From Vicinamibacterales bacterium (GTDB lineage Bacteria > Acidobacteriota > Vicinamibacteria > Vicinamibacterales > UBA2999), in the NCBI GenBank assembly GCA_041394705.1, contig JAWKHS010000014.1, positions 7,900 through 71,899 of the forward strand: a stretch of DNA of 64,000 nt. The letters run 5' to 3'. Both the position numbers and the translations under genes were made by a program. Positions 3,647-43,439 of the stretch are shown one piece after another (position 1 is the first letter of the stretch; each line of letters opens with the position of its first letter). Under the pieces are notes generated by a model. It had not been told where the DNA came from and ran no database searches. It saw nothing but the letters and a program-made list of their open reading frames with translations.

Positions 3647-3650
3647 GGCC

Positions 3651-18398: not shown

Positions 18399-18402
18399 GG
18401 CC

Positions 18403-19152: not shown

Positions 19153-19174
19153 GGGATCCTCGCCGACCGCTGCG

Positions 19175-20203: not shown

Positions 20204-20241
20204 TGCCGTACTCCTGGAGATGCGGATGGCGGTGGTTGGAA

Positions 20242-22764: not shown

Positions 22765-22960
22765 GGCCGGGTCCCGCGCCGGCCCAGCGCCACAAAACGG
22801 TAGGGCTGTTGCAGTTACGGCGGTGCGGCGACGCGGCGCACTGCGGTCACGCGATGGTGCGGCCCCGGCCAGGCTGCCCCGATCGGGACAGTGTGCGGGG
22901 GCTCTTCGACCGGGACCAGCAGGCGTCGCGGGGCGCGCGCTTGGGAAATAATCGCAGCCA

Positions 22961-24202
22961 GTGGCCACCTCGACGGCGACCGCGTCACTCGTGCCGCTGC
23001 CCGCCGCCGGCGAGGGGCACTGGCGGTACGCGGGCTGGAAGGTGGCGCTGGCCAGCAGCGCCGGGGTGTTCTGCTGGTCCCTGCATCCCTACAGCTTCGC
23101 GGTCTTCCTGAAGCCCCTGACCGAAGAGTTCGGGTGGACGCGCCAGATGGTGGCCGGCGCCTTCGGTCTCTCGGCCCTCATGGCCGCCGCTCTGTCCACG
23201 CCCGCCGGGCTTCTGATGGACCGCGTGGGCGCGCGGGTGGTGCTCATCCCGGCGCTGACCGGCGCCGGGCTCGTGTTCCTGCTCCGGGGATTCGTGACGG
23301 GGCCTTTCTGGCACCTCGCGGCGCTCTTCGCGCTGAGCGGCGTCTGCGGGCAGGGCGCCAACCCCGTCGCCCACGCGCGGCTCGTCTCGACGTGGTTCGA
23401 CGGCCGGCGCGGGCGCGCCCTGGGCGTGGTGATGGCCGGCGTGGCGGCCGGTGCGATGGCCCACCCGGTCGTGGGCCAGCTGCTCATCGACGGCGTCGGC
23501 TGGCGCGCCGCCCAGGTCGTCCTCGGCGTCCTGATGCTGACGGGCGTGCCGATCGTGGCGGCCTTCGTGCGTGCCAGGCCCGACACGCCACGCGCGGGCG
23601 GCCCCCACGTCGCGGGCATGCGCGCTCCCGAGGCGCTCAGGACGCGCGTGTTCCTCGTGCTCGCAGCGGTGCTGCTGTGCGACGCGCTCGCCACGGGCAG
23701 CCTCACCGTGCACCTGCCGGCGCTTCTGACGGACCGCGGCGTCGACGCGCCGACCGCGGCGCTGACGCTCTCGGCGATGGGCGCCGCGGCCCTGGTGGGA
23801 CGTCTCGGCACCGGCTCGCTGCTCGACCGCTTCTTCGCGCCCTACATCTCGATCGCGCTGCTGGTGCTGGCCGCCGCGGGACTCCTCGTGCTGGCCACGG
23901 CGGAGTCGCGTGCGGCCGGCATCCTCGGCGCGGCGTGCGTGGGCCTCGGCATGGGCGGCGAGTCGGACGTCACGCCCTACCTCCTGACACGGTATTTCGG
24001 CCTGCGCGCCTTCGCCACGATCTACGGCGTCATGTTCACGATCACGGCCGTCGCGTGGGCGGTGGGCCCGACGCTCATGGGTCGGGCGTTCGACGCCGAC
24101 GGCACCTACGCCCCGCACCTCGTCCGCCTGGCGGCGCTGCTCGGCGGGGCGGCGCTGTTGATGCTGAGCCTCCCCCGCTACGCGCGGGCCGGCCAGGAGT
24201 GA
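22961..24202 (+). CDS. MFS transporter
   Basis: 413-aa ORF with about 12 TM segments and MFS-like loop motifs ([11 protein letters not shown]). GTG start. Its stop lies 4 nt before the bEBP start. Confidence 0.85.
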
Positions 24203-24206
24203 CCGA

Positions 24207-27200
24207 ATGACGATGAGCGACCTGCCCGATCGGCCCGCGCTGACGGGCCTCCTCACGGCCGCGCGGGCCATGCTGCCCACAGGCGCCGTCGGCTTCGCGC
24301 GGCCGGCCGGCCATGGTCTGGTCGACGTCCTCCTCCTGTCCGATCACGGCGTCGGCGCGCACGTCTCTCCCGCACTCGACGCGCCGGCCGCGCTGCGCCC
24401 TGGTGGCACGGGCCTCCTCCAGACCGGCCCCGACGACCTGGCCGCGTTCCCCGATCGCTCTCCCGAGTGGCAGTTGCGCTTCCACGGCGTTCAGCGGGTC
24501 CTGTCGTTGCCGCTGCCCGGCGCTGCGTCCGGCACGCGCATCTGGGTGGGCGCCACCAGCGGCGAGGAGCCGCCCGCTGCCGTCGCCGACGCGCTCGCCG
24601 GCCTTGCCGCGCTCGGTGCCGCGGTCCTGCACGCCGAGGTGACGCCAGCCGAGCGGCTCGAGCGCCTCGAGCGCCTGGATCGCGCGGCGGACCTCGTGCC
24701 GGCGCTGCTCGAGGTGCTCGACGTCCGCGACGTGTTCGCCCGCCTGTCGGAGACCGCGCAGCGCGCTCTTCCCCACGACTTGCTGCTGCTCCGCGAGTTC
24801 AGCGACGACATGACGACCGCCCGGGTCTACGCGCTGTCGGACCGCGGGCCCGTCGCCGGCCCGCCCGTCGCGCACGGCTACCCGGTGTCCGTGATCCGTG
24901 CCTGGGAATACTCGATCGTGGACGACCTGGCGGCGCATCCGATCGAGGCGGAGGCGCCGCTGGCGAAGCTCGGAGCCCGGTCGGTGCTCCGCCTCGCCAT
25001 CAAGTTCGACCGGCGGACGATCGGCGGCCTCGCCTTCCTCTCCCGGTCGCCGGCGGCGTTCACGACCACGGACTTCATGGTCGCGCGCCGGCTGGCCGAT
25101 CACGTCGCGGTGGCGTTGTCGCACCACCGGATGGCCGAGGAGCGGCGCCAGGCCGCGGCGCTCCGCGAGCGCTCGGCCAACCTCGAGATGCTGGACGGCC
25201 TGCTGGCCGCGGTGGCCGGCGTCCTCGACATCCGGGCGGTCTTCGAGCGCGTGTCCGAAGTGGCACAGGCCGTCCTGCCGCACGACGGGCTGTCGATCCT
25301 CGAGCTCCTGGACGGTGGGGCACGGGCGCGGGTGCACGCGAGCCACGGGCTGGGCGATCTCCCCGACGTGCTCGAGATCCCGACCCCGCAGCCGGCCCTG
25401 TCGCCCGAGGCGATGGACACTCGAATCGTCGAGGACTATCGCGAGCGCCCCGAGTACGCCACCGGCCCCGGGGCGCGGGCCGGCATGCGGTCCTCGCTCT
25501 TCGTGTCCATTCATCTCGAAGGCAAGGTGTTCGGCGGCGTCAACTTCTACTCCCGCACCCCGGGCCGCTTCACGAAGGACGACATCCTGGTGGCCCGCCG
25601 CGTCACAGACCACGTCGCGCTGGCGCTGTCGCATCAGCGGCTGGCCGACCAGGTGCGCGCGACCGAGGAGCTGCGCGCGCAGACGACGGCGCTGGAGATG
25701 CTCGACGGGCTGCTCGCCTCGCTGATCGACAGCGGTGACCTCGCCGACACGTTCGCTCGGATCTGCGGCATCGCGGCCCGCGTCCTCCCCCACGATGGAG
25801 CGATGCTCATGGAGCGGCTCGCCGATGGCGAGACGGCGCGCCTCTACGCGAGCGCCGGCATGCCGGACTCCCTGCCGCGCACCGGCCGGATTCCGCAGGA
25901 CGCCCTGGACGATCCGGCCTGGGACCACCACCTGTTCGACGACCTCGCGAACGCCGGCGCACGGTACGCGCCGATGCTCCAGATGGGATTCCGGTCGATG
26001 CTGCGGGTGTCCGTCCGCCTCGACGGCCGACTCGAGGGCGCCCTGGTGTTCCTCGGCAGGGACACGAACCGTTTCTCGCCGCGGGACGCGATGATCGGCC
26101 GTCGCATGGCCGACCGGATGGCCGTCACGCTGGCGCGCGGACGCGAGCTGGCGTCGGAGCGACGCGCCGACGAGGCGCTCGAACGCGCCGCGCGCCTGGA
26201 AGCCCGCGTCCAGGCGCTCACCGACGAGCTCGACGCGCGCACGGGGTACCGCCGCGTGATCGGCGACTCGCCGCAGTGGCGGCAGGTGTTGACGCAGGCC
26301 ACGCAGGTGGCGGCCACCGAGACCACCGCCCTGCTGCTCGGCGAGTCCGGCACCGGCAAGGAGGTGGTGGCCCGCTTCGTCCATCGCGCGTCCCCGCGCA
26401 GGAACGGCCCGTTCCTGGCCCTCAACTGCGCGGCCCTGCCCGAGCAGCTCCTCGAAGCCGAGCTCTTCGGCTACGAGCGCGGGGCCTTCACCGGCGCGGT
26501 CCAGAGCAAGCCCGGCCAGTTGGAACAGGCCGCCGGCGGCACGTTGTTCCTCGACGAGGTCGGCGAGATGAGCCCCACGGCTCAGGCCAAGTTCCTGCGG
26601 GTGCTCCAGGAGCGCGAGTTCCAGCGCCTGGGCGGCACCCGCGTCATCCGGAGCGAGGCCCGCATCGTCGCCGCCACCAACCGCGACCTCCCGCGCGCGA
26701 TCGCCAACGGCCAGTTCCGCGAGGACCTCTACTACCGGCTCAACGTCTTCGCGATCCGGCTGCCGCCGCTGCGCGACCGCAAGTCCGACATCCCCACCCT
26801 CAGCGAGGCGTTCCTCGCCGAGATCGGCAAGGGACTCGGCCGACCGCCAGGGGGCATCTCGCGCGACGCGCGCGAGCTGCTCGTGGCCTACCACTGGCCG
26901 GGAAACGTCCGCGAGCTCAGGAACATCCTGGAGCGATCGGCGATTCTCTGTGAGGGTGGGCTCATCACGGCCGACCTGCTCGGAATCACCGCCGCGCCCG
27001 CGCCCGAGCCCACGCTGGCGGCGCCCGCACGCACACCGCCCCCGGGTGCCCCTGCGGCCCCATTCGCTCCGCCGATTGCGGCCGCGCCGCCCGGCGGCGG
27101 CCCGCCGACGTCAGCCGACGACCTCGCCGGGCTGGAGAAGACCATGATCGAGAACGCGCTGACGGCCGCGCGCTTCAACAAGTCGAGGGCTGCCAAGGCC

Positions 27201-27257
27201 CTGGGCATGACCCGGCATCAGCTCTACATCCGGATGCGCAAGCACGGGCTGGAATAG
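24207..27257 (+). CDS. Sigma-54-dependent transcriptional activator (bEBP) with about four N-terminal GAF domains, an AAA+ sigma-54 interaction domain and a Fis-type HTH
   Basis: Walker A is [11 protein letters not shown]. The GAFTGA loop is present ([13 protein letters not shown]). Walker B is [10 protein letters not shown]-finger context is [10 protein letters not shown]. The C-terminal HTH is [22 protein letters not shown]. The N-terminal ~650 aa show four repeats of a GAF-like pattern ending in ...HVA(V/L)ALSH(H/Q)R(M/L)A. Confidence 0.9.
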
Positions 27258-27280: not shown

Positions 27281-28699
27281 TCAGTCCCTGCCGAACGTGA
27301 GGAAGGCACGCTCGCCCTGACGCTCGATCTGCAGGACGAACGGTCGCCCCGGCGGCAGCGACGCCAGCGCCTGGCGCAGGTCCATGAGATCCGCCACGGG
27401 AGTACGGTTCACCGCGCAGATCACGTCCCCCGGGAGCAGCGGGCCGTCCACCGCGTCCAGGTCGGCGCCCGCCGACGACACGACGACGACGCCGCGTCCA
27501 ATCCTGACGGCCGGCAGCAGGCGCGCGACCGCGGGGTCGAGCGCCACGGCGAGGATCCCCAGCATGTCCACACGGTTCCGGCGCGGGTCGGCCGACGCCG
27601 ACACCGGCGCCAGCGGGTCGGGCCGTTCCGCGACGGCGACGGGCACGGACACGGGCTGGCCGTCGCGCAGCAGCGCGAGCGTGACGACGTCGCCCACGAA
27701 GCGCCGGTAGAGCCCAACCTGGAGCTGGCGGCTGTTCTCCATCGGCTTGCCATCGAGCGCGAGCACCAGATCGCCGGGGCGGAGGCCCGCCACGTCCGCA
27801 GACGTTCGGGGCAGCACGTCGGCGAGCACGACGCCGGCGTCTCCCGCCAACCCGAGCCCCTCGGCCAGGGCCGGCGTGATCGTCTGGGCGCGAACGCCGA
27901 TGTCGCCCCGACGGACGCGGCCGTGCGCGCGAAGGTGTTCGTACACCGTGCGGACGATGTTGCTGGGCGCCGCGAAGCCGAGGCCCTCGTAGCCGCCGGT
28001 GCGCGACAACATGAGCGTGTTGAGGCCGACGAGCCGGCCCTCCAGGTCCACGAGCGGGCCGCCGCTGCTCCCGGCGTTGATGGGCGCGTCCGTCTGTATG
28101 TAGATCATGGGCGCGTCGGGCTCGAGCTGGCGGGCCACGGCGCTCACGACGCCGAGCGATACCGAGTTCTGGAGCCCAAGCGGGCTGCCGAACGCCAGCA
28201 CGAGCTGCCCGGCCCGAAGTTCGTCGGAGTCGCCCATGCGGACGACGGGCAGGCCCGAGGCCGCCACCTTGATGACGGCCAGGTCGGTCTCCAGATCGAT
28301 GCCGACCACCTCGGCCGGCAGGCTTCGCGTGCGCGCGGCCAGAATCGAACGGCCCCGCGCCGGCACCGGGAGGTCCACCCGCAGGCGCTGAGCGCCCCGC
28401 ACGACGTGCGCGTTGGTGACGATGTAGCCGTCGGCATCGACCACGACACCGGAGCCGGCGCCCCGCGCTGTCGTGACCAGGTCCGAGCCATGGCCCGCAC
28501 GGCCGTCGGCGGGCACGAACGCGGTCGTGTGGATCTCGACGACCGCCGGCCCGACGGCCCGTGTCGTGGCCTCGAGCACGGCGCTCAGGTCGTCGCCTGC
28601 GGCGGCCCTTCGCCCGGCCGGCTGGGCAGACGCGGTCGCCGCGGCCAGCAGCGCGGCGATGGCCAGCGCGCCAGCCCTCGCCCGCTCAGCGGACCTCAT
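27281..28699 (-). CDS. HtrA/DegP-family periplasmic serine protease with PDZ domain(s)
   Basis: ATG at 28699 is preceded by GGGAGGG. Signal peptide ...ATASAQP. Triad context is TNAHVV, DLAVIKV and GSSGGPLV. PDZ-like segments are GLRPGDLVLALDG and LLPGDVICAVN. Confidence 0.85.
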   Translation of the reverse strand: MRSAERARAGALAIAALLAAATASAQPAGRRAAAGDDLSAVLEATTRAVGPAVVEIHTTAFVPADGRAGHGSDLVTTARGAGSGVVVDADGYIVTNAHVVRGAQRLRVDLPVPARGRSILAARTRSLPAEVVGIDLETDLAVIKVAASGLPVVRMGDSDELRAGQLVLAFGSPLGLQNSVSLGVVSAVARQLEPDAPMIYIQTDAPINAGSSGGPLVDLEGRLVGLNTLMLSRTGGYEGLGFAAPSNIVRTVYEHLRAHGRVRRGDIGVRAQTITPALAEGLGLAGDAGVVLADVLPRTSADVAGLRPGDLVLALDGKPMENSRQLQVGLYRRFVGDVVTLALLRDGQPVSVPVAVAERPDPLAPVSASADPRRNRVDMLGILAVALDPAVARLLPAVRIGRGVVVVSSAGADLDAVDGPLLPGDVICAVNRTPVADLMDLRQALASLPPGRPFVLQIERQGERAFLTFGRD

Positions 28700-28897
28700 C
28701 GCGCCCTCCCATGGGACGTTCGAGTCCCACGACCTCGCCGGTACCACCGCGGGCCCGGACGGGCCGGGCCCACTGGCGGTTCAACGGCCTGCTCCGGCAC
28801 CGCAAGGGCCCACGCCGTCTCGTTCCGAAAAATCCGCATCGCCGTCCTCCTCTGCTGTCCCGCAGTCGGTACGGGCCCCGGGCGGGCCTGGGGCCGG

Positions 28898-30484
28898 TCA
28901 CATCGCGACCGTCGTCAGGTCGTGCCGGAGCGGCCAGCCAGCCGGCGGCGCCGCCGCGCTCTCGCGCGCCTGCCACCAGTGCCTGGCGGCGCGCGCATCC
29001 CACGTGTCGCGCGTCAGCACCCGCTCGGCCATCTCCGCCAGCACATCGGCGCTCTGTGGACGATCACGCGGATCCTTCTGCAGACACGCCATCACCAGGT
29101 CGTCCATCGCGCGCGGCACCGGGCAGGGCGCGCGCAGGGACGGCGGCACCGGACGCTCCTGCAGGTGGCCGGCGAGCTGGCGGGCCGCGCCGTGATCGCC
29201 GAAGACCGGCTGGCCCGTGAGCAGGTAATAGGCCACGCAGCCCAGCGCGTAGACATCGGCGCGGCGATCCACATCGTGGCCGGCGATGGCTTCGGGGGCC
29301 ATGTAGGCGGGCGTCCCGACGACGGCGCCCGCGTGGGTCATCATCGTGCCCGCCCGCGCGCGATCCTCGTGTCGGACCAGGCCGAAGTCGAGCACCTTCA
29401 CGAAGTCGTACTCCAGGCCCAGCCGGCAGACGTACACGTTGGCCGGCTTCACGTCACGGTGGATGAGCCCAGCGGCGTGGGCCTCCCCCAGCGAGCCGCA
29501 CATCTGGCGCAGCAGGTGGAGTACTCGGGCGGGCGGCAGGGGCCCGAACTCCGCGACGAGCGATTCCAGATCGCGGCCGTCGAGCAGTTCCATCACGTAG
29601 TAGAACGTGCCGTCGTCGGTGAGCCCGAAGTCGTAGAGCCGGATCGTGTGGGGCGAGGAGAGGGACGCGGTCGCTTGCGCCTCGCGCTCGAAGCGGGCCG
29701 CCGCGCTCCGGCCGCTGCCGAACGCCGCCGCGAACTCCGGCCGGATCAGCTTGATGGCGGCATCGCGGGCGAGCAGCCGGTGGCGGGCCCGCCACACCTC
29801 GCCCATCCCACCCTGCCCCAGCCGCTCCACCAGGTGGTAGCTGCCGAGCGCGCGGGCCTGGCGGATGCGGCCCGCCAGCTGATAGACGACGCGCACGGGC
29901 ACGACGGCCAGGATGGCGCAGACGAAGTTCTCGTAGAACATCAGGACGGCGCGCAGCGGCGGCGGCGTGGGCAGCCCGCGCAGATGCGCGACCCACACGG
30001 CCAGCGGATCCATCGCGGCGGCGACGAGGCCGCAGGCCAGCACCTTCCAGGGCCGGGCTGGAGCGAGCATGCCGACGAAGAGGATGAGCACCGTGACCTG
30101 CGACAGCGGCCGGACGTCCGTGGGCTGGGCGACCCAGCTGTTGAGGAGGGCAATTGCGAGGGCGTGCGGCACCATGGCGACGGTGCCGACATCCACCTTG
30201 GACCCGTGGCTCACCGGCGCATGGCGCACGACGAGCGCGGTGGCCGCGGCCAGGGCCGCCGCCACGCCGCCGATGATCGATCGATAGGGGCCACGGTCGC
30301 CGTGGGGGGCGAACCACGCATCCATGACCAGCGTGAGCACCCACAGGGCCACGCCGAATACGTAGAGGAGCTCAAGGCGGATCAGCTGCTCCGCGCGAAG
30401 GTCGGCCGGCAACGTCGCGGAGTCGCCGCGCGCGCCTGCGGAGGCGCTCGAGGACGGGCGGGCGATGACGACCTGACGTTCCAC
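28898..30484 (-). CDS. Ser/Thr protein kinase with N-terminal polytopic (about 7 TM) membrane domain
   Basis: GTG at 30484 is preceded by GGAGGG. TM helices come first. Kinase motifs follow: GQGGMGEVW, AIKLIR, HRDVKPAN, DFG and GTPAYMAPE. Confidence 0.85.
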   Translation of the reverse strand: MERQVVIARPSSSASAGARGDSATLPADLRAEQLIRLELLYVFGVALWVLTLVMDAWFAPHGDRGPYRSIIGGVAAALAAATALVVRHAPVSHGSKVDVGTVAMVPHALAIALLNSWVAQPTDVRPLSQVTVLILFVGMLAPARPWKVLACGLVAAAMDPLAVWVAHLRGLPTPPPLRAVLMFYENFVCAILAVVPVRVVYQLAGRIRQARALGSYHLVERLGQGGMGEVWRARHRLLARDAAIKLIRPEFAAAFGSGRSAAARFEREAQATASLSSPHTIRLYDFGLTDDGTFYYVMELLDGRDLESLVAEFGPLPPARVLHLLRQMCGSLGEAHAAGLIHRDVKPANVYVCRLGLEYDFVKVLDFGLVRHEDRARAGTMMTHAGAVVGTPAYMAPEAIAGHDVDRRADVYALGCVAYYLLTGQPVFGDHGAARQLAGHLQERPVPPSLRAPCPVPRAMDDLVMACLQKDPRDRPQSADVLAEMAERVLTRDTWDARAARHWWQARESAAAPPAGWPLRHDLTTVAM

Positions 30485-30748
30485 CTGTGACCCTCCGGGC
30501 CCGCTCGCGGGGTGGCGGCGGGCGACGCGGCTGTCGCTGTGCGAGACCCGTGCCGTACGCGAGTGCGTCAGATGGCCATCGCGGGGTCGGCGGCGGCACC
30601 CGTGGTCCGGTCTGCTCGACTGCGCCCCGCCGGACAGGCTGTGCGTATCGGAGCAGCCTGGCCGCAGGTAGACGCGGCCCGGGCGCCTTCCGGGAACACG
30701 TCGCGGTGCAATCCGCCCCAATTCGGCGTTCCCGTTCGTGAATGGTGG

Positions 30749-30764
30749 TGGTCCCGAACTTGCC
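30749..30764 (+). promoter_or_regulatory. Sigma-54-type promoter candidate P1 (TGGTCC-CGAAC-TTGCC)
   Basis: GG at 30750-51 and GC at 30762-63, spacing 12. It lies 32 nt upstream of GTG 30797. It shares the 12-mer CCCGAACTTGCC with P2. Confidence 0.6.
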
Positions 30765-30796
30765 TCGCAGGTGGGCGGATACAGAGGGACGAATCC

Positions 30797-31039
30797 GTGG
30801 CACACCGAATCATCGAGATGCTGATCGGCCGGCTCATCACCGACGAGGCCTTCCGCGAGGCGTTCCTCGCCCACCCCGAGGCGGCGCTGCTCGACCTCGT
30901 CGAGAAGGGCTTCGACCTGAGCCGGTCTGAAATCGCGGCCGTGCTCGACACCGACCCGGCGCTCTGGGTCCAGGCCGCCGAGCGTGTCGACCCGCGCCTG
31001 CAGAAGGTGCGGCTGACGGGCGGCCTCCCCACGCCCTGA
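30797..31039 (+). CDS. Small helical protein resembling the NHLP clan (nitrile-hydratase-leader-like, Os1348-like); paralogue of 35532..35768
   Basis: GTG at 30797 with AGAGGGA 7 nt upstream; an alternative ATG lies at 30818. The sequence is IEMLIGRLITDEAFREAFLAHPEAALLDLVEKGFDLSRSEIAAVLDTDPALW. The family assignment is from memory of the pattern, not from a search. Confidence 0.55.
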   Translation: MAHRIIEMLIGRLITDEAFREAFLAHPEAALLDLVEKGFDLSRSEIAAVLDTDPALWVQAAERVDPRLQKVRLTGGLPTP

Positions 31040-31285
31040 CCACGCGGCACCGTCCCCGGAAGCTCAGGGCCAACGGCACCGGGCCCGTCGAGGCAGTCGC
31101 GCACCTCGCCGCGGTGTGGCGCGTCCTGCGCCATGCCTGGGACGGCGTGCGCGGACCACCGGTCTTCCTGCCCGGGCGCTCGCCGTTCGCAATCCTCTCC
31201 TCCCCGCCTCTCACCGCCGCTCGCGGCCTCTCCCTGCGCGCCTCGGCGCCCTGCTCCTCCGAGCCCGCCCGTGACCACTCCGACG

Positions 31286-31311
31286 CCGCACGGTGACCGC
31301 TGACCGTGCGG
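31286..31311. promoter_or_regulatory. Inverted repeat CCGCACGGT-N8-ACCGTGCGG (candidate enhancer/UAS or RNA hairpin)
   Basis: Perfect 9-bp arms at 31286..31294 and 31303..31311, about 150 nt upstream of the -24 element of P2. GTGACC-like direct repeats are nearby. Confidence 0.35.
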
Positions 31312-31445
31312 TCGTCCGATCGCAGCCTGCCCCGATCCGCGCACTCTGCCGCGCGCGACGCACCTCGCGACGAGTGGACCAGCGTGGACGAAGCGCGCGG
31401 CGCGAAAACCCGGGGATTTCGACGAGGAGGCGGCGCCGCGTGACA

Positions 31446-31461
31446 TGGCCCCGAACTTGCC
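31446..31461 (+). promoter_or_regulatory. Sigma-54-type promoter candidate P2 (TGGCCC-CGAAC-TTGCC)
   Basis: GG at 31447-48 and GC at 31459-60, spacing 12. It lies 91 nt upstream of ATG 31553, inside a 513-nt non-coding spacer. Confidence 0.6.
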
Positions 31462-31552
31462 CATGGGTGACGGCGGCGGTCACTGCCGCGCACTGCGGCG
31501 CGGTCGAGGGCCGCCGCGACACCACCATCCATCGTTCACAGAGGAGTACGTC

Positions 31553-32080
31553 ATGAGACTCGCTACCATCGCCGCCCTCGTGGGCCTGCTGTTCGGCACC
31601 GCCGCCTCCGCCCAGTCGATCAGCTTCGACTTCGACCGCTCGATCAGCTTCGGCGCCTTCAAGACGTACGCGTGGGTGTCCGGCACCAACGTCCCCGATG
31701 CGCTCGTGCATCAGCGGATCGTGAACGCCGTGGACGTGCAGTTGGCGCGCAAGGGCTTGACGCGCGTGGATGCCGAAGCGCGCCCAGACGTGCTCGTCGC
31801 CTATCACGCCTCGCTCGACAAGGACCTCCAGATCTCGGGCTTCGGCTCCGGCTGGGGCGGGTATCGCTTCGGCGGCTACCGCACCGTGTCGGCGCGCGCC
31901 GAGGAGATCCTGGTCGGCACGATGATCGTGGACATCGTCGATGCCGGCACCAGCACGATCGTCTGGCGCGGCACGGCGACGAAGGACATCGACGTCGACG
32001 CCAAGCCGGACAAGCGCGACAAGAACATCACCAAGACCGCGGAGAAGCTCTTCAAGCACTACCCCCCGCAGTCGCGGTGA
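31553..32080 (+). CDS. DUF4136-like secreted/lipoprotein-type protein
   Basis: GAGGAG RBS. Signal peptide MRLATIAALVGLLFGTAASAQ. The pattern FKTYAWV...VLVAYHASLDKD...TMIVDIVDAGTSTIVWRGTATKDI is typical of DUF4136. Confidence 0.7.
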   Translation: MRLATIAALVGLLFGTAASAQSISFDFDRSISFGAFKTYAWVSGTNVPDALVHQRIVNAVDVQLARKGLTRVDAEARPDVLVAYHASLDKDLQISGFGSGWGGYRFGGYRTVSARAEEILVGTMIVDIVDAGTSTIVWRGTATKDIDVDAKPDKRDKNITKTAEKLFKHYPPQSR

Positions 32081-32184
32081 CCCTCGTGGCTCCAGCCCTG
32101 CCACGCGGTCCGGACGGCGTCTCCCGGACGCCGCCCGGGCCGCGCCCCCAGGCAGGCCTCTTTTCCTCAACTCAGGAGGTCGTG

Positions 32185-32880
32185 ATGTCCCGCCCGTCTC
32201 TCGGTTCCACCTTGTCGCTGGCCGCCGCCCTCGGGCTCGCCGTCACCGCAGCGCTCGCGGCGCAGCCACGCGAGTTCGCCGATGCGCACCGTGCCAATCA
32301 GGCTGCCCTTCGGCACTATTCCTGGACGAGCCGGACCGATCTTCGCGTCGGCGGCGAATCGACAAAGGTGCGCCTCGAGTACGTCCGGTTCGACTACGAC
32401 GGACGGCTCCAGAAGACGACCATCGGCGGCGGCACGGCAGCCGACGCCGCGCGACCGGGTCCGCCCGGACCCGCCGGCGCCGTCAGAACACGCGTGGCCG
32501 CCCGGAAGAAGGCGGCGTTCCGAGACAGGCTGGCCGATCTGGCGACGCTCGCCGAGTCCTATGCGCATCTGCCCCCCGATCGCCTGGAAGCCTTCGCGGC
32601 GCGGTCCGTGCTCACGCCCGAGGACGCCACCACGATCCGAATCCAGGGGCGCGGGCTGCTCGAGGCCGGCGACCAGATGACGGCGTGGATCGATCGCGAG
32701 CGCCTGGCCATGCGACGCGTCGAGATCACGACCATCTACGACGGCAACCGCGTGCGCATTCGCGCCGACTACCGGACCACCGACACGGGCCTCACGTATC
32801 AGGCACGCGCGACGCTCGACTACCCCGCCGACGGCATCGAGGTGGTGGTCGACACGTTCGACTACCTGCCGGCCCGCTGA
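32185..32880 (+). CDS. Hypothetical secreted protein
   Basis: AGGAGG RBS. Signal peptide MSRPSLGSTLSLAAALGLAVTAALAAQP. 231 aa with no motif I recognise. Confidence 0.6.
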   Translation: MSRPSLGSTLSLAAALGLAVTAALAAQPREFADAHRANQAALRHYSWTSRTDLRVGGESTKVRLEYVRFDYDGRLQKTTIGGGTAADAARPGPPGPAGAVRTRVAARKKAAFRDRLADLATLAESYAHLPPDRLEAFAARSVLTPEDATTIRIQGRGLLEAGDQMTAWIDRERLAMRRVEITTIYDGNRVRIRADYRTTDTGLTYQARATLDYPADGIEVVVDTFDYLPAR

Positions 32881-32938
32881 GCGCCGCCAGTCCGACCTGG
32901 ACGCTCCGGCGTCCCGCGTCTTCCCCGAGGTATCGATC

Positions 32939-35226
32939 ATGAGACCCGTTCCCCCCCTTGCTGCCCGTCTGCTCGCCGCCGTCCTCGTCCTGTGCGGCAG
33001 CGCCGGACTTCTGCCGGCCTCGGCGGCCCCGGCCCTCGCACCGGCACCCGCCGCCGATCCGGGATGGCCGCGCACCTACGACACGCCGACCGGCGGCCGG
33101 CTCACGCTCTACCAGCCGCAGATCGCCGCGTGGGACGACCAGCGGCGTCTCGTGGCCTACGCGGTTGTCGCGCACCGTCTGAAAGGCGGCGGCTCGCCGG
33201 TGCTCGGGACGATCAGGATCGACGCTGACACCGACGTGGCGCTCGCCGAGCGCCTGGTCCGGCTCACCACCCTGCAAATCACGGGCGCCAGCTTCGGGGC
33301 GGCCGGCCGCGATCGAACCGCCCTCGTCGTGCGCGAGCTCGAGGCGTCCGTGCCGGCGCCCGAACGGGTCATCGCGCTGGACCGCGTGCTCGCTGGCCTC
33401 GACGCGAGCCGCCTCCGGCCGCGCGCGGTGGCCGGTGTGAATGCCGAACCTCCGCGAATCCACGTTCGCACCGGTCCGGCCCTGCTCGTGGCATTCGACG
33501 GCCCGCCGATTTGGAGTCCCATCGACGGATCGACGCTCCGCTATGCCGTCAACACGAACTGGGACGTGTTCGAACTGCGGGCGGCCGGCCGAATCTACCT
33601 GCGCGACGGCGCACGCTGGCTGGAGGCGCGGGCCCTCGACGGCCCGTGGCGCATGGCCGCGGAGCTGCCCTCCGCCCTCGGCCGGCTACCCGACGATCCC
33701 AATTGGGCCGACGTGAAGGCCAGCCTCCGAGCCGCAGCCGTCGCCGCGAGCGCCGCTCCCGAGGTGATCGTCACGACCGTGCCCGCCGAGCTCGTGGCGC
33801 TCATGGGCGAGGCCCGCTACGAGGTGACCCGGCCGGGCGGCCGTCTGCTGTGGGTGAGCAACACCGACAGCGACGTCTTCCGTCTGGGTCTGTCGGGCCC
33901 GGTCTACTACCTGGTGGCCGGCCGCTGGTTCTCGGCGCCCGGCTTCGCGGGGCCCTGGACGTTCGCGACGCCGACCCTGCCCGTCGAGTTCACCCGGATT
34001 CCTCGGGATCACCCGCGGGCGCGCGTCCTGGCTTCCGTGCCGGGCACACCCGAGGCCGCCGAAGCCGTGCTGCTGGCAGGCATTCCACAGACGGCGACGG
34101 TGACCAAGGCCGCCGTGTCCGCGCCGCCGGTCGCGTACCAGGGCGCGCCGGTGTTCGTGCCCATCGAGACGACCGCGGTGCAGCGCGCCGTGAACACGGC
34201 GTACGACGTGCTCCGCGTCGGCGACCGCTACTATCTCTGCTTCCAGGGCGTGTGGTTCGTGTCCGCCCTCCCGGCCGGTCCCTGGGGGGTGGCCGGCGCC
34301 GTGCCAGCCGCGATCTACGCGATTCCTGCCAGCTCACCGGCCCACCACGTCACCTATGTGACCGTCGTCAGCGATACGACCGATGCCGTCGTCGTGGCGG
34401 CCGGCGCCGGCTACTCGGGCGTCACGATCGCCTGGGGCTGCGCGGTGTGGGGCACGGGCTGGCATTACGCCCAGCCGTCTGGTACGGCGGCCCACTCCCC
34501 GTCTACTATCCCCACGCCGCGACCTACGGCGCCGCGGCCCGGTACGACCCCTGGAGCGGCACGTATCAGCGCGGGGCCGTGGCGTACGGCCCGTACGGCG
34601 GCGCGGGCGCTGCCGCGCGGTACAACCCCGCCACCGGCACCTACGCTCGGGGCGCCGCAGCCTGGGGGCCTTACGGCGCCACCGGCGCCGCGCAAACCTA
34701 CAACCCTCATGCGGGCGTCTACGCCGAGGCGCGCCAAGCGGCCGGCGTCTACGGGCAATGGGGCGCGAGCGCCGTGCGTCTTGGCGACGAGTGGGCGCGG
34801 GCGGGCCACGCCACCAACCGCGCCACCGGCGTCACGCGCGCCGGCGTCGTCACCGACGAGGGTGCCGCCATCGGCCGGAGCGGGCCGGCGGGGCGCGGGT
34901 TCGTCGCCTCCGGGGAGGACGGCGTCTACGCGGGACGCGACGGCCACGTGTACCGGAGAGCGGACGGCGGCGGGTGGCAGAAGTACGACGACGGCGCGTG
35001 GGCCGACACCCAGCATCCCGCCAGCGACGCCGCAAGCCGTGCGCGCGACTCGGCCGGCCGACAGCCGGCGGACGGCACGCTCGGCCAGCTCGAACGCGAT
35101 CGAGCCGCCCGGGCTGAAGGCAGCCGGCGCGTCGGCGAGGGCGCCAGGACTGGCGAAGCGCCGCGGGGCGGCAGCCGTCCGGCGCGGCCGGACCCTCGTG
35201 CCGGCGGCCGTCGGCCCCGGAAGTAG
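32939..35226 (+). pseudogene. Large secreted protein with a C-terminal Gly/Tyr/Ala-rich repeat region, interrupted by a -1 frameshift near 34469..34472
   Basis: Frame of ORF 32939 is convincing up to ...AVWGTGWHY. The convincing sequence then continues in the frame of ORF 33511 as PAVWYGGPLPVYYPHAATYG...DGHVYRRADGGGWQKYDDGAW, ending at TAG 35224..35226. The junction is at a CCC run. After the junction the original frame degenerates into Pro/Thr/Arg-rich text. Confidence 0.7.
34522..34770 (+). repeat. Protein-level tandem repeats (about 20-22 aa, pattern ARY-x-P-x-x-GTY-x-RGA-x-A-x-GPYG) inside the frameshifted gene
   Basis: TYGAAARYDPWSGTYQRGAVAYGPYGGAGAAARYNPATGTYARGAAAWGPYGATGAAQTYNPHAGVYAEARQAAGVYGQWGAS. 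Confidence 0.55.
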
Positions 35227-35258
35227 CGCGGCGCGTCAGCCCGCCGGATCGGGCCGGG

Positions 35259-35304
35259 CGGCGTCCCTCACCACCACGCGCGTCGTGGGATCTGAGGGAC
35301 GCCG
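35259..35304 (+). terminator. Long GC-rich hairpin directly after the stop of the frameshifted gene (terminator-like, no U-tract)
   Basis: 12-bp perfect arms: CGGCGTCCCTCA at 35259..35270 and TGAGGGACGCCG at 35293..35304. The inner segment can pair further (CCACCACG / CGTCGTGG). Confidence 0.45.
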
Positions 35305-35379
35305 TCCGGCCCGCCTCACTACGGGCGTGCGAGCGTGCGGCCTGCGGCAGCGCGGGCAACCTGTCCGCAACGGGGCAAC

Positions 35380-35397
35380 CCGCGTGAGCTCACGCGG
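35380..35397. promoter_or_regulatory. Perfect 18-bp palindrome CCGCGTGAGCTCACGCGG (candidate bEBP enhancer site)
   Basis: Centred about 107 nt upstream of the -24 GG of P3. It is flanked by a GGGCAAC direct repeat at 35354..35378. Confidence 0.4.
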
Positions 35398-35493
35398 CGG
35401 CCACCCCGCACCTCCGCGCGCATGAAAAATTCCGGAGCGCAGAATGTGGAGGAAATCCCAGAGATGTCGCCGGAGGCGCACGCGGCGCGCGAC

Positions 35494-35509
35494 TGGCCCG
35501 CCGCTTGCC
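35494..35509 (+). promoter_or_regulatory. Sigma-54-type promoter candidate P3 (TGGCCC-GCCGC-TTGCC)
   Basis: GG at 35495-96 and GC at 35507-08, spacing 12. It lies 22 nt upstream of ATG 35532. The GGAGG RBS at 35522..35526 would sit almost at the 5-prime end of the transcript. Confidence 0.5.
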
Positions 35510-35531
35510 CTGCCAGGGCACGGAGGCTGAC

Positions 35532-35768
35532 ATGACCGCGACCATCCGCACCCTGGACCAGACCCTGGACATCCTGATCGACGAACTGCAGGCCGACGAC
35601 GAACTGCGCGCGGCCTTCTTCCGGCACCCGGATCGCCTGCTGCGGCAGGCCGACGAGTGGGGCCTGCCCTTGACCGACACGGAGGTCAACGCGCTGCAGA
35701 CCCCGCGCGTGCCCGTCTGGGAGCGCGTGGCGGACGCCCTGAACGCGCGCGCGCGGCAGGCTGCCTGA
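35532..35768 (+). CDS. Small helical protein, paralogue of 30797..31039 (NHLP-clan-like)
   Basis: GGAGG lies 5 nt upstream of the ATG. LDILIDELQADDELRAAFFRHPDRLLRQADEWGLPLTDTEVNALQTPRVPVW aligns position by position with the 30797 product (L-I..L..D...R.AF..HP...L......G..L...E..A). Confidence 0.55.
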   Translation: MTATIRTLDQTLDILIDELQADDELRAAFFRHPDRLLRQADEWGLPLTDTEVNALQTPRVPVWERVADALNARARQAA

Positions 35769-35799
35769 GTGGACGGCTGCGGGCCGTCCGCAGCACCGC

Positions 35800-36405
35800 T
35801 CATGGCTGCCGGGACACGTCCAGGGCCAGACGCACCAGCTCCACACCGTCGGCCCGCAGGACGACCTCCCGGGCGGTGTCCGCCACGTCGGCGTCGAAGA
35901 GCGCCTCCACGGTCGCGCCCGCGACCGGCAGCCGTTCGTTCGGCGCGCCGGTTCCGAGCCCGAACACCGTGGCGCCCTCGAGCGCGAGGCGGGGCAGCCG
36001 TCCGGCGCGCCCAATGAGATCGAGGTCGAGCGGCGGCGCCAGGACGTAGGCGTTCTGCGGCGGGAAGCGCAGACGTCCGACGATGGCCACCTTGCGCCGC
36101 CACGGCCGCAGCGCCTCGCGCGCCCGCCACAGACCGCGCGCGAACGCCCAGTCACCCGCGGCGAGGCGGGCCTCGGCGATGAGCGCCAGCCGGCGCCGCT
36201 CGGTGACGATCTCGATGCGCTCGACCACCGGGTGCTCGATCTCGAGGCCATACGCCCGGTGAAAGGCCGCGCGCGCAGCCGCGTCGCCGCGCGCCACCGC
36301 CAGCACCCGTTCGATCTCCGCATCGCTCGCGCCGTGCCCGGGCCGGTCCGGCTGGCCGGCCGCCAGCGTGCCCAGGGCCAGCAGCGCCGCAGACGCCACC
36401 CTCAT
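35800..36405 (-). CDS. Hypothetical secreted protein
   Basis: AGGAGG lies 6 nt upstream of ATG 36405. Signal peptide MRVASAALLALGTLAAG. 201 aa with no recognised motif. Confidence 0.55.
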   Translation of the reverse strand: MRVASAALLALGTLAAGQPDRPGHGASDAEIERVLAVARGDAAARAAFHRAYGLEIEHPVVERIEIVTERRRLALIAEARLAAGDWAFARGLWRAREALRPWRRKVAIVGRLRFPPQNAYVLAPPLDLDLIGRAGRLPRLALEGATVFGLGTGAPNERLPVAGATVEALFDADVADTAREVVLRADGVELVRLALDVSRQP

Positions 36406-36461
36406 GCCGCACCTCCTGCAGGATCGGTCGCGACCATCCGCGTGCCGACGACTCGCCGATG

Positions 36462-36477
36462 GGCAAGTCCGGTGCCG
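36462..36477 (-). promoter_or_regulatory. Sigma-54-type promoter candidate P5 (CGGCAC-CGGAC-TTGCC)
   Basis: The reverse complement of 36462..36477 reads CGGCACCGGACTTGCC. The GGCAC and TTGC elements have canonical spacing. It lies 56 nt upstream of ATG 36405. Its core differs by one base from P1/P2. Confidence 0.55.
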
Positions 36478-36663
36478 CCGGGCCGTGGCCGGGGCGCAAC
36501 CGCAGTGTGGGCGCGGAATTCCTGAGGATTCTCTTGGAGTACGCGTACAGGAGGCCGCGGATGGGCGTCCCCGCGCCTCGACAGGGCATGCGCCGGCAGC
36601 GGCCAGAGTGTGCCCAGAGGCACGCGGTGGGCGCCCATCGCCGGCCGATGGGCGCCCGGGGGA

Positions 36664-39594
36664 TCAGAACTGGTACCGCACGCCGAACTGCGCCTGGCGC
36701 GGGAAGCCGCCGCCGCCGCGCAGGTTCGTCCGCACCAGGAACGTCGACGCCACGCGACGGTCGCCCGACGGGTTGTCGAAGTTCGCGCGGTTCGTCACGT
36801 TGAAGATGTCGAAGAAGACGTTGAGGGCATGGTTCTCGCGGGTCCGCACCCGCCAGCCGGCGCGAAGATCCAGCTGGAAGTAGTCGGGTCCGTAGGCGCC
36901 GTTGCGCCCGCCGTCGTTCTTCACGTCCTTCATCGCGTTCAGGGCGGTGCCGCTGTAGGTGCCGGCCGGCAGCGGGTCGACGAGCTCGCCGTTCTGGTCC
37001 GCGTCGATGCTGCTGTCGAAGATCGTGAAGGGCGCCCCGCTCATGTAGCGGGCGGTGGCGGAGACGTTCATGCCCCACGTCTTCGGGATGTCCACCTGCC
37101 CGCTCACCGACAGGATGTGACGGCGGTCCACCTGGCTGGGCCCGGACCAGTCGTCCAGACGGAGATCGGTGCCCACCTGGTAGGTGTTCTTGTCGGCCTG
37201 GTTCTCGGCCGTGCCGCGCGAGTAGCCCAGCGAGTAGGACACCCGGCCCGACCAGTTGTGCGACAGGCGCTTCTCCACCTGCAGGTTCAGGGCGTCGTAG
37301 TCGTTCTTGCCGGTGTTCTCCATCACCCACACCTGCTGGCTGTAGGCCTCGCCGAGCACGCCGAACGCGTCGCTCCGGGTGATGGCGCCGGTCCGTGTCG
37401 TGTCCACGCGCCGCATCGGGTTGAGGTTGCGCGCCAGGAACATGTCGCGGTTCAGCGACTTGACGTAATCGGCGCTCACGGCCACGGACTGCCCGAACTG
37501 CCGGGTGTAGCCCACCGTCATCTGGTGCGCGTACGGCTGCTGCCGGCCGGGCGCGTCGAAGATCACGACGCCGGCGTTCCTGATGCGCGCGCCGGCCGGG
37601 TACCGCTGGTTCATCAGCGCCTGGTTGATGAACGGGCCGTTCACCAGCCACGGATCCGTCGGGAACTGCCCGCGGCTGGGTCCGGGATCGGCGTTGTTGT
37701 TCGGGAACTGCAGTACCGCCGACTCGGTGAACTTCGAGAACTCCACGACGTCGTCGATCGCGCCGAGGATGGTGCGGTTGTAGAAGATCCCGTAGCCGGC
37801 GCGAAGGACCGAACGGTTCTGCTCGTCCAGCGCACGGGTGAAGCCGAGGCGCGGCGCGACGTTGTTCTTGTCCACGGGATAGCCGGCCCCCGCGAACAGG
37901 GGGTTGTCGGTCTCGTCGAGCGGAATCACCTCCAGGTCGTAGCGCAGGCCGAGGCTGATGGTGTTCCGGCCCACGCGCCACTTGTCCTGGACGAACGCCT
38001 CGAAGGTGTGGTTCTTCACGAACTCCCGGAAGGCGTTCGGGACGCGGATGGTGAGCCGTTCGGGATAGGTGCGGGGATCGGCGGCGTCGAACGGCGCGTT
38101 CGTGTTGAAACGGAAGGTGCCGTTCCTGTTGATGCCCGACACACGCTCGAGCTCCGTGAAATTGTAGCGGGCGCCCAGCTTGAACTCGTGGTCGCCGCGC
38201 CTGGTCGGGACGTACCACGACACGTCGTCCTCGACCTGCCAGTTCGAGTCCCACGGCCCCTGCAGTTCCGTGCTGGCCTGGCCGAGGAACTCCAGGTAGT
38301 CGAGCTGCGGCGGGCAGAGTGACTGGTCCTGCACGGCCTCGTCGCCCTGGGCCCGCGCGCACTCGTTGGCGTGCCACCAGTGCTCCCACGTCCTGGCGAT
38401 GCGCACGGTGTTCACGCGCGAGTTGCCGAGCACGCTCGTCAGGGTGAAGACAGCCGTCTGGTCGAGGTCGGTCTCGTCCTGGAACGACGCCTCCGTCTGG
38501 CGGGTGCCGATCACGGGAAACTGCGGCGCCGACTCGCGCAGCCAGCGCGCGGCCCAGGTGTGGTTCTGGGTCAGCTGATGGTCGATACGGATGAGCGTGT
38601 TCCAGTCCGACCGCTCCTCGACGCGCGAGAAGTTCAGCTCGGGCCGGGACGAGAACACGCGCGATCGGTTCGGGTTGTCCACCTGGCGCTCGAGGCTCAG
38701 GAAGAAGTGCATCTTGTTCTTCACGATGGGCCCGCCGACCACGCCGCCCCACTCGCGCTTGGTCACGGTGGGCTTCGGCAGGTCGTTCTGCTTCACGAAG
38801 AAGTCGCGTGACGTGAGCTGGTTGAACGCCGAGTAGCCGAAGAGGACGCCCCGGAACTCGTTCGTGCCCACCTTGGTCACGGCGTTGACGACCGCGCCGC
38901 TCGCGCGTCCGAACTCCGCGTCGTACATGCCCGTGACCACCTGGAACTCCTGGATGGCCTCGAGCGGCGTCCGGACCTGCGCGCCGGAGCTCGTGCCCAG
39001 CGCGTCGTCGGCGTTGTAGCCGCCGTCGACGGAGACGTTGGTGTTCTGCGACGTCTGCCCGCCGGCGATGATCGTGTCGTTCCCCATCTGGTTGGAGGGC
39101 GTGAACTGCACGCCCGGCAGGAGCGCGACGGCCGAGAAGTAGTTCCGGTTGATGGCCGGCAGCGTGGAGAGCTCCGCCGTGCCGATGTTGCCGCCGACGC
39201 TCGTGCTGCTGGTGTCCACGAGGGGCGACGCGCCCGTCACCTCGACGGTCTCGGACAACGATCCGACCTTCAGGGTGAGATCCACGGTGACCGTGTTGCC
39301 CACCTGCACGAGGAGCCCCGTGCGGTCGAAGGGCGCGAAGCCCTCCAGCGTCGCCCGGAGCTTGTAGCGCCCGGGCACGATCTGGGAGACGAAGAAGGCG
39401 CCCGACGCGCCGGTCGAGACCTCGCGGAAGACGCCGGTCTCCTCGTTGGTCACGACGAGCGTGACCCCGGGCAGCACCGCGCCTTGTTCGTCGGTGACCT
39501 TGCCCGCGATCTGTGACGTGCCTTGTTGGGCCGAGAGCGACGTGGCCGCCGCCAGGACGAGTGCTACTGCCAGACCGAGTCGAACACCGCGCAT
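36664..39594 (-). CDS. TonB-dependent receptor, Oar-like (N-terminal carboxypeptidase-regulatory-like domain)
   Basis: ATG at 39594 with a GGGAGG RBS. Signal peptide ...ATSLSAQQ. The N-domain reads GKVTDEQGAVLPGVTLVVTNEETG...GRYKLRATLEGF. The ~970-aa barrel ends in ...QFGVRYQF. Confidence 0.9.
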   Translation of the reverse strand: MRGVRLGLAVALVLAAATSLSAQQGTSQIAGKVTDEQGAVLPGVTLVVTNEETGVFREVSTGASGAFFVSQIVPGRYKLRATLEGFAPFDRTGLLVQVGNTVTVDLTLKVGSLSETVEVTGASPLVDTSSTSVGGNIGTAELSTLPAINRNYFSAVALLPGVQFTPSNQMGNDTIIAGGQTSQNTNVSVDGGYNADDALGTSSGAQVRTPLEAIQEFQVVTGMYDAEFGRASGAVVNAVTKVGTNEFRGVLFGYSAFNQLTSRDFFVKQNDLPKPTVTKREWGGVVGGPIVKNKMHFFLSLERQVDNPNRSRVFSSRPELNFSRVEERSDWNTLIRIDHQLTQNHTWAARWLRESAPQFPVIGTRQTEASFQDETDLDQTAVFTLTSVLGNSRVNTVRIARTWEHWWHANECARAQGDEAVQDQSLCPPQLDYLEFLGQASTELQGPWDSNWQVEDDVSWYVPTRRGDHEFKLGARYNFTELERVSGINRNGTFRFNTNAPFDAADPRTYPERLTIRVPNAFREFVKNHTFEAFVQDKWRVGRNTISLGLRYDLEVIPLDETDNPLFAGAGYPVDKNNVAPRLGFTRALDEQNRSVLRAGYGIFYNRTILGAIDDVVEFSKFTESAVLQFPNNNADPGPSRGQFPTDPWLVNGPFINQALMNQRYPAGARIRNAGVVIFDAPGRQQPYAHQMTVGYTRQFGQSVAVSADYVKSLNRDMFLARNLNPMRRVDTTRTGAITRSDAFGVLGEAYSQQVWVMENTGKNDYDALNLQVEKRLSHNWSGRVSYSLGYSRGTAENQADKNTYQVGTDLRLDDWSGPSQVDRRHILSVSGQVDIPKTWGMNVSATARYMSGAPFTIFDSSIDADQNGELVDPLPAGTYSGTALNAMKDVKNDGGRNGAYGPDYFQLDLRAGWRVRTRENHALNVFFDIFNVTNRANFDNPSGDRRVASTFLVRTNLRGGGGFPRQAQFGVRYQF

Positions 39595-43362: not shown

Positions 43363-43439
<77 letters not shown>

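Follow-up and report, generated by a model that had tools for sequence, protein, structure and literature searches.

Are the short GG-N10-GC elements that stand before several genes in a 64,000-nucleotide stretch of a Vicinamibacterales (Acidobacteriota) genome (GCA_041394705.1, contig JAWKHS010000014.1, positions 7,900 to 71,899; hereafter the window) promoters read by sigma-54 RNA polymerase, or strings that DNA of 72% G+C supplies by itself? A preliminary description of this DNA, made from the sequence alone, selected four such sites and proposed a local sigma-54 regulon beside a sigma-54 activator. The proposal is well supported for P1, P2 and P3, which combine conservation in other genomes, an upstream enhancer and a neighboring activator with the GAFTGA motif, and less so for P5, whose comparative support goes no further than a near-identical relative. 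Judged from sequence comparison, and with a probability of roughly 0.78, the sites are sigma-54 (−24/−12) promoters of a local regulon, which very probably has at least seven such promoters in the window.

The original sites comprise P1 (30749–30764, forward strand, TGGTCCCGAACTTGCC), 32 nt before the gene of small protein A; P2 (31446–31461, forward strand, TGGCCCCGAACTTGCC), 91 nt before an operon encoding a DUF4136 protein, a 231-aa protein and a ~760-aa protein; P3 (35494–35509, forward strand, TGGCCCGCCGCTTGCC), 22 nt before the gene of small protein B; and P5 (36462–36477, reverse strand, CGGCACCGGACTTGCC), a candidate promoter 56 nt before the gene of a 201-aa secreted protein. Positions, sequences and distances were as first described, and so were the 12-mer CCCGAACTTGCC common to P1 and P2, the single base by which P5 departs from the 11-mer core, and the location of all four sites outside genes, judged here on a gene map based on G+C at third codon positions (GC3). 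Two long open reading frames (ORFs) of the mechanical ORF list overlap P1; because the divergent kinase gene has a conserved start at GTG 30484, the P1 region is intergenic and these ORFs are not genes there. The set first listed was incomplete, having overlooked a 26-bp enhancer and three further promoters added in this analysis: P6 (15600–15615, reverse strand, TGGTGTGGAACTTGCC), 85 nt before the gene of a membrane metallo-β-lactamase (MBL)-fold protein; P7 (22749–22764, reverse strand, TGGCCTCCGTGTTGCC), 45 nt before ATG 22703 of an operon encoding DJ-1/PfpI, a sulfatase, an outer-membrane channel and AIM24; and P8 (30540–30555, reverse strand, CGGCACGGGTCTCGCA), 55 nt before GTG 30484 of a Ser/Thr kinase gene and divergent from P1. 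The GG (−24) and GC (−12) dinucleotides are exactly 10 nt apart in seven of seven sites, the spacing expected of sigma-54 promoters, and all seven sites are non-coding, stand 22–91 nt before a start codon with a ribosome-binding site (RBS) and point at that start codon. P5 is the best fit to the canonical GGCAC-N5-TTGC, and the −12 element of P8 reads TCGC.

The comparison of orthologous loci, a check proposed in the preliminary description, carries much of the argument. A scan of one genome per species yielded 79 loci encoding relatives of the small proteins (labeled L001 onward), and in 70 of 78 loci the 100 nt preceding the small-protein gene contain a GG-N8/9-TG block that matches at least 8 of the 11 positions of TGGCACG-N4-TTGC, against 0–2 of ~76 in each of four control windows of the same loci. 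The distance from the beginning of the motif to the small-protein start codon is 41–46 nt for 65 of the 71 loci compared; the orthologous P1 motif lies at about −38 to −47 in related loci, and the information content is limited to T-GG-CACG...(T/G)TG(C/A/T)AA, with unconserved flanks and a weakly conserved N4 spacer. In the close clade the motif reads YGGTCCSGAACTTGCC, which makes the shared core of the preliminary description a lineage signature; other Vicinamibacterales display TGGCGC-N5-TTGCC, and one Solibacter genome displays TGGCACATGCGTTGCC. A separate variation is seen in about 40 orthologous promoters of Thermoanaerobaculia and Holophagales (L027–L068, L070, L071), which sit ~41–46 nt before the small-protein ATG and pair a perfect −24 TGGCAC(G) with a −12 element of the form (G/T)TG(A/T)A, as in TGGCACGGCGTGTGAA and TGGCACGGGACTTGTA. 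These promoters lack the C that is normally almost invariant at −12, and might point to a lineage-specific relaxation of sigma-54 −12 recognition.

The individual promoters differ in how far their conservation reaches. P2 is kept upstream of the DUF4136 gene in four genomes with an altered spacer (TGGCCCTGAACTTGCC in L001, TGGTCTGGAACTTGCC in L002, CGGTCCGGAACTTGCC in L004 and TGGCAGCGCGATTGCT in L014), and the enhancer-promoter-gene arrangement of P6 recurs in L010. The kinase gene of L001, L002, L003 and L069 is preceded by a P8 orthologue of the form CGGCACG-N4-YTCGCA, whose spacer varies (CGGCACGCGCCTCGCA in L003, CGGCACGTCCTTCGCA in L069); the L002 16-mer is identical to P8, even though the kinase of that locus shares only 68% identity. 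A P8-like element, CGGCACGCGAGTCGCA, with G at the Y position, stands before a different divergent gene in L007 (5665–5680), and in L009 (5690–5720) the small-protein gene is paired divergently with an HtrA gene that carries TGGCATTCTCGTTGTA (TGGCAT-N5-TTGTA) ~30 nt before its ATG; both arrangements indicate that a divergent promoter pair around one enhancer recurs. For P3 the support is limited: the L001 copy differs at two spacer positions, and the B-like gene of L015 has a similar site in front of it. P5 is kept only in L001, a genome nearly uninformative for P5 and P3 because its intergenic DNA is ~93% identical to that of the window. Four homologues of the 201-aa protein were found, the gene lying inside an unrelated operon in three of the three looked up, and no sigma-54 site was seen upstream of the homologue in L080, the only one scanned. 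The genes of the P7 operon directly follow the small-protein gene in L004 and L010, and thus stand under the P1 equivalent there.

The second invariant block in the alignments of orthologous upstream regions is a 26-bp palindrome, CAnnnTGnnCnnATCnGnnCAnnnTG, the predicted enhancer (upstream activating sequence, UAS). Enhancer 1 (30635–30660, CAGGCTGTGCGTATCGGAGCAGCCTG) is a perfect match separated by 88 nt from P1 and by 79 nt from P8, in opposite directions, and its columns are invariant in a 12-genome alignment (A2); enhancer 2 (31323–31348), also perfect, stands 97 nt upstream of P2, with columns invariant in a further alignment (A3). Enhancer 4 (15715–15740) and enhancer 5 (22870–22895) are perfect matches 99 nt upstream of P6 and 105 nt upstream of P7, respectively, and enhancer 3 (35357–35382), with two mismatches, is located 111 nt upstream of P3, so that six promoters (P1, P2, P3, P6, P7 and P8) have the palindrome 79–111 nt upstream. 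Where 0.07 palindromes would be expected, the window holds four perfect copies plus a fifth with two mismatches (0.5 per window are expected when all palindromes with up to two mismatches are counted), and each perfect palindrome has a correctly oriented GG-N8-TTGC 88–105 nt away, an arrangement with a chance probability of about 1e-6. Across genomes the palindrome is confined to the clade nearest the window (L001–L004, L007–L011, L014, L069), where it always lies 85–139 nt upstream of a promoter. Its core reads TG(T/C)-N10-(G/A)CA, that is, TG-N12-CA, with TGT-N10-GCA in the enhancers of P1 and P6. An origin as a repeat or mobile element was rejected, the seven regions sharing only the enhancer and the −24/−12 blocks (alignment A4).

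Between enhancer and promoter, ~35 nt upstream of −24, an A/T-enriched palindrome-like element is also observed, CAGGAATTCC in P5 and P6, GGAAATCC in P3 and GAAAACCCGGGGATTTC in P2, with the consensus GGAAATC-N5-GATTCC in the P1 orthologues; it is a candidate target of DNA-bending proteins (IHF/HU) or of a second regulator.

The candidate reader of the palindrome is the sigma-54 activator, or bacterial enhancer-binding protein (bEBP), encoded at 24207–27257 (forward strand), which according to Pfam comprises an N-terminal domain, three GAF domains, an AAA+ domain with GAFTGA and a Fis-type helix-turn-helix (HTH). It had been described as a four-GAF protein; three GAF repeats are detectable (residues 170–310, 336–480 and 511–646), preceded by 165 N-terminal residues to which no domain could be assigned. 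The sigma-54 interaction domain contains an intact GAFTGA, an accepted criterion of sigma-54 dependence (PMC3162934). The recognition helix reads LTRHQLY(I/V)RMR in all nine enhancer-bearing cases with an activator in reach (the window and eight loci), whereas the HTH of enhancer-less loci always displays TRAQLY or TRQQLY; this co-variation of the recognition-helix His with the palindrome ties the activator to the palindrome. The gene order in which an MFS transporter (22961–24202, forward strand; Pfam MFS_1) precedes the activator, with which it is probably co-transcribed, is repeated in L002. Only 65 nt separate enhancer 5 from the start of this MFS-activator operon, an arrangement that may reflect autoregulation of the activator; inspection by eye disclosed no sigma-54 promoter for the operon or for the FGE-sulfatase gene (15804–16781) that adjoins the P6 enhancer.

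A different activator, or several, might instead bind the palindrome at genuine sigma-54 promoters. The window covers 64 kb of the genome, P5 has no good palindrome, L015 and L018 carry several paralogous GAF activators, and the Thermoanaerobaculia loci have the promoter but no activator gene closer than 6 kb. Set against this are the co-occurrence of the HTH His with the palindrome wherever both are visible, the position of activator orthologues immediately beside the target in L004, L010, L011 and L014, and the palindrome before the activator's own operon. An activator other than the 24207–27257 protein is therefore unlikely for the regulon as a whole, and one encoded elsewhere in the genome is possible, especially for P5.

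One alternative to sigma-54 promoters is that all the sites are chance matches, GG-N10-GC and near-consensus strings being abundant at 72% G+C. The bare core GG-N8-TTGC occurs 25 times in the window against 30 expected, i.e., without enrichment, a result that justifies the caution of the preliminary description about chance matches, although the pattern it quoted, TGG-N9-TTGC, should read TGG-N8-TTGC. Several observations weigh against the sigma-54 assignment. A generic sigma-54 matrix, approximate and modeled on the Barrios consensus, gives P1, P2, P3 and P5 only 8–9 bits, with 24 matches at that level against 25.7 expected, and counting consensus positions retrieves 110 strings in the window that match at least 8 of 11. 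With this matrix, equal-score matches occur in coding DNA at chance frequency, the outcome that the preliminary description had named as speaking against its own proposal. The sites carry C instead of A/T at −11 and mostly no A at −22, and the spacer (CCSGAAC; GGTCCGGAACTTGCC in the close clade) is more conserved than sigma-54 binding alone needs. No RpoN box was found in the 64-kb window or in the 79 loci, and an rpoN gene is presumed to exist in the genome, given the GAFTGA activator and the occurrence of sigma-54 in nearly all bacteria with two membranes and lipopolysaccharide (diderm-LPS; PMC3162934). For P5 and P7 there is no informative orthologous promoter, P7 scores an unremarkable 10.0 bits with the lineage-specific matrix described below, and the enhancer of P5 is degenerate: the palindrome at 36604–36629, 126 nt upstream, has three mismatches, a class expected 7.5 times per window, so that position alone argues for it as a weak candidate. 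P5 is accordingly the least supported of the four original sites.

With the generic matrix failing, the assignment is rescued solely by lineage-specific and comparative evidence; the G/C part of the sigma-54 consensus is uninformative in this genome. The pattern YGGYMC-N5-TTGCC, fitted post hoc to the sites, has four matches against 0.45 expected. A clade matrix built from 27 sites, all from other genomes, ranks P1 (20.8 bits), P2 (20.1), P6 (20.1), P3 (16.3) and P5 (15.5) as the top five of 128,000 positions, with 0.27 matches above 15 bits expected and with all five inside the 8.6% non-coding fraction of the window (chance about 5e-6); because orthologues of P1, P2 and P6 are part of the training set, a further point on the negative side, these scores are not fully independent, and the independent information lies mainly in the rank of P3 and P5. 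The intergenic top ranks in an externally trained matrix, the preservation of motif sequence and placement at orthologous sites across dozens of genomes, and the pairing with a palindrome so rarely expected render chance scarcely credible as a general explanation. On the sequence conservation across genomes, chance is excluded for P1, P2, P3, P6 and P8; for P5 or P7 individually it is conceivable.

Two further matches were recorded. The sixth best score of the clade matrix in the window, 13.1 bits, belongs to a site at 589–604 (forward strand, CGGTATGGAACTTGGC), which lies within a coding ORF, has no enhancer and carries GG in place of GC at −12; it is probably a chance match. A good, non-coding match to GGCAC-N5-TTGCT at 83–98 (reverse strand, AGGCACCGCTCTTGCT) is located at the window edge with its target gene beyond the window, and no palindromic enhancer was found near it.

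The conserved spacer leads to another alternative, in which the block is read by a different factor, either an extracytoplasmic function (ECF) sigma factor with GGAAC as −35 element or a repressor or activator whose operator is centered on CCGGAACTTGCC, and transcription starts elsewhere. GGAAC resembles an ECF −35 element, an ECF-type sigma gene is located at 13138–13737, and the close clade keeps its spacer as noted above. Beyond that clade, however, GGAAC is lost (TGGCGCAACGCTTGCC, TGGCACATGCGTTGCC, TGGCACGGCGTGTGAA) and what persists at fixed spacing and position is GG and TG; P3 and P8 have no GGAAC; no CGT-type −10 element is seen at 16–17 nt, a position occupied by the RBS; and the conserved neighbor is a GAFTGA activator. 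The ECF-sigma or operator reading was rejected on the absence of the string from other clades, P3 and P8 and on the missing −10, and a reader other than sigma-54 polymerase is altogether very unlikely. No sigma-70 consensus promoters or intrinsic terminators were found in 30400–36700, and an RNA element was rejected, Rfam giving only a tRNA elsewhere in the window (43366–43439, reverse strand; its sole match).

If the sites are indeed sigma-54 promoters, RNA polymerase with sigma-54 would bind GG-N10-GC and form a closed complex, while the 24207–27257 activator would bind the 26-bp palindrome 79–111 nt upstream of each promoter, contact the polymerase by DNA looping, perhaps aided by the A/T-enriched element, and open the promoter using ATP once its GAF domains sense a signal. 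Such a mechanism is classical enhancer-dependent sigma-54 activation, a type already known. The targets would comprise (i) the two Os1348-family small proteins (P1, P3), (ii) the DUF4136/231-aa/~760-aa operon (P2), (iii) the MBL-fold protein (P6), (iv) the DJ-1/sulfatase/channel/AIM24 operon (P7), (v) the Ser/Thr kinase (P8) and, probably, (vi) the 201-aa protein (P5).

A close known parallel is offered by the NifA-dependent nif promoters of Klebsiella and rhizobia, which combine sigma-54 −24/−12 elements with TGT-N10-ACA and a GAF-AAA+-HTH activator. The 24207–27257 activator shares with NifA the domain order of GAF, AAA+ with GAFTGA and Fis-type HTH, and among NCBIfam models it scores highest against NifA, at 386 bits; this value is below the TIGR01817 equivalog cutoff of 528.85, and the protein is not NifA. 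Both systems display a GG-N10-GC promoter and a palindromic enhancer with a TG-N12-CA core ~100–130 nt upstream of the start. On the other hand, the activator contains three GAF domains and an extra N-terminal domain where NifA has one GAF, and the half-sites and extension of the 26-bp enhancer differ from TGT-N10-ACA, to which none is identical (the palindrome at 22875–22890 ends in ACA but starts with TGC). No nif genes are present, and the targets are small and secreted proteins, a kinase and hydrolases. At the level of target choice, sigma-54 has been called the 'controller of the bacterial exterior', with ~10% of its activators of the GAF type (Francke et al. 2011, PMC3162934), and the present regulon follows this theme, its targets being mostly exported, membrane and outer-membrane proteins and its activator being of the GAF type. 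The words Acidobacteria, Solibacter and efflux are absent from the main text of PMC3162934, and a literature search on sigma-54 in Acidobacteria and on Franean1_4349 found nothing relevant.

The P2 operon starts with the DUF4136 protein (31553–32080, forward strand), which carries a signal peptide and matches its Pfam family at 1.8e-32, followed by the 231-aa secreted protein (32185–32880, forward strand), without a family match and with orthologues in L001, L002 and L014, and by the ~760-aa secreted protein (32939–35226, forward strand). The last gene is present as first described, but not in a single frame: its reading frame changes near 34470, through a frameshift or through an error of assembly. 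The orthologue is single-frame in L002, and the gene is wholly absent from the near-identical L001. The 201-aa secreted protein assigned to P5 (35800–36405, reverse strand) is rare. Further upstream of P5, at 36630–36660, a perfect hairpin (GGGCGCCCATCG-GCCGG-CGATGGGCGCCC) directly follows the stop codon of a TonB-dependent receptor gene and is terminator-like, without a T tract.

The kinase (28898–30484, reverse strand; 528 aa, Pfam Pkinase) is a membrane protein with ~6–7 hydrophobic segments. It does adjoin the regulon, as the preliminary description noted, yet it is no mere neighbor: preceded by the conserved P8, it is itself a probable target, as far as the promoter sequence indicates. 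The HtrA-type protease (27281–28747, reverse strand; Trypsin_2 and PDZ by Pfam) lies 150 nt downstream of the kinase, and its membership in the regulon is uncertain. The P6 target (14015–15514, reverse strand) displays a hydrophobic N-terminus and a Pfam Lactamase_B_2 domain. The P7 operon (16809–22703, reverse strand; Pfam assignments) comprises the genes of DJ-1/PfpI (21864–22703), a 541-aa sulfatase (20242–21867) whose GTG start codon overlaps the stop of DJ-1, a Phenol_MetA_deg outer-membrane channel (19175–20203) and AIM24 (18403–19152), all on the reverse strand, and ends with two unassigned ORFs. An ORF at 20330–21793 (487 aa, no family) was discarded as an alternative-frame artefact of the sulfatase gene. 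The regulon would most probably act in scavenging or detoxification at the envelope, possibly of sulfate esters; the 'envelope or stress module' of the preliminary description was a guess at function.

The two small proteins connect the regulon to a named family. They had been described as paralogous ~80-aa helical proteins, with no family named; the paralogy is borne out, at 25% identity (alignment A1), and small protein A (30797–31039, forward strand; 80 aa) belongs to the Os1348 family of the NHLP clan (NCBIfam NF038399, 61.3 bits against a cutoff of 40), for which the structure 6LK7 is available. The divergent paralogue B (35532–35768, forward strand; 78 aa) scores 26.6 bits, under the same cutoff. 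The AlphaFold2 model of A is all-helical, with six helices and a pLDDT of 83, and 6LK7 ranks first both in the sequence comparison (E = 0.0011) and in the fold comparison (probability 0.95, TM 0.48), where it is the sole meaningful match. Os1348 itself, from cluster OS3 of Pseudomonas sp. Os17, is an 85-aa dimer linked to antibiotic activity, controlled by GacA/Rsm with a proposed −35/−10 promoter and with putative modification genes, GNAT among them, downstream (PMC7726476). Like Os1348, the related small genes are found upstream of efflux genes, heading a TolC-like/HlyD/AcrB efflux operon in most of the 79 loci, whereas in the window the small genes stand alone. Unlike Os1348, small protein A has a gene with a sigma-54-type promoter and no adjacent modification enzymes, and its family is wholly conserved, with no variable core after the leader-like domain.

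A comparison with the NHLP/Nif11-type precursors of ribosomally synthesized and post-translationally modified peptides (RiPPs; Haft et al. 2010, as cited in PMC7726476) points the same way. Small protein A shows a weak similarity to the leader-like domain of these precursors, below cutoff for both TIGR04509 (27 bits) and the Pfam family Frankia_peptide (37 bits), but has no Gly-Gly-delimited variable core. The family is conserved end to end, with 65% mean column identity and a short variable tail only, and no maturase or transporter-peptidase genes lie beside the small gene in the window or the loci, the neighbors being efflux, kinase and activator genes. Identity as a RiPP precursor was rejected on this end-to-end conservation and the lack of neighboring maturases.

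A more far-reaching and still tentative proposal, rather doubtful at present, is that a GAF-type sigma-54 activator and an Os1348-family small protein form a conserved two-gene regulatory unit, in which the small protein is a feedback partner of signaling proteins and not a peptide-antibiotic precursor. A small, cytoplasmic, helical dimer would then modulate the activator, or be a substrate or adaptor of the kinase, and gate efflux and envelope operons. The proposal draws on the adjacency of the two genes in ~30 Acidobacteriota loci, on the duplication of the pair in L015 and on the sigma-54 promoter that the small gene itself has in 70 of 78 loci. The L015 segment (3493–11750), counted as three tandem activator/small-gene pairs, runs in the order small, activator, small, activator (split) and small; every small gene there has a GG-N8-TTGC promoter to itself, and the segment looks like a duplication of activator and small gene as a unit. 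In Desulfobacterota and Binatia the small-protein gene also has an activator beside it, of a different architecture.

Abundant in soil and mostly uncultured, the Acidobacteriota are almost unstudied as regards gene regulation, and the locus would provide them with a complete circuit: an activator, the 26-bp site to which it is predicted to bind, and seven promoters with a defined set of targets. New are this regulon and its enhancer sequence, together with the phylum-wide coupling of Os1348-family proteins with sigma-54 promoters, GAF activators, kinases and efflux operons. The analysis also offers a rule for very GC-rich genomes, in which generic matrices fail and the pairing of promoter and enhancer, combined with orthologous conservation, succeeds. 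For the Os1348-type family, labeled in databases as a relative of RiPP precursors, the comparison discloses a conserved, probable sigma-54 target in Acidobacteriota, and its linkage to activators, Ser/Thr kinases and RND efflux operons points to a role in regulation or efflux rather than to an antibiotic precursor.

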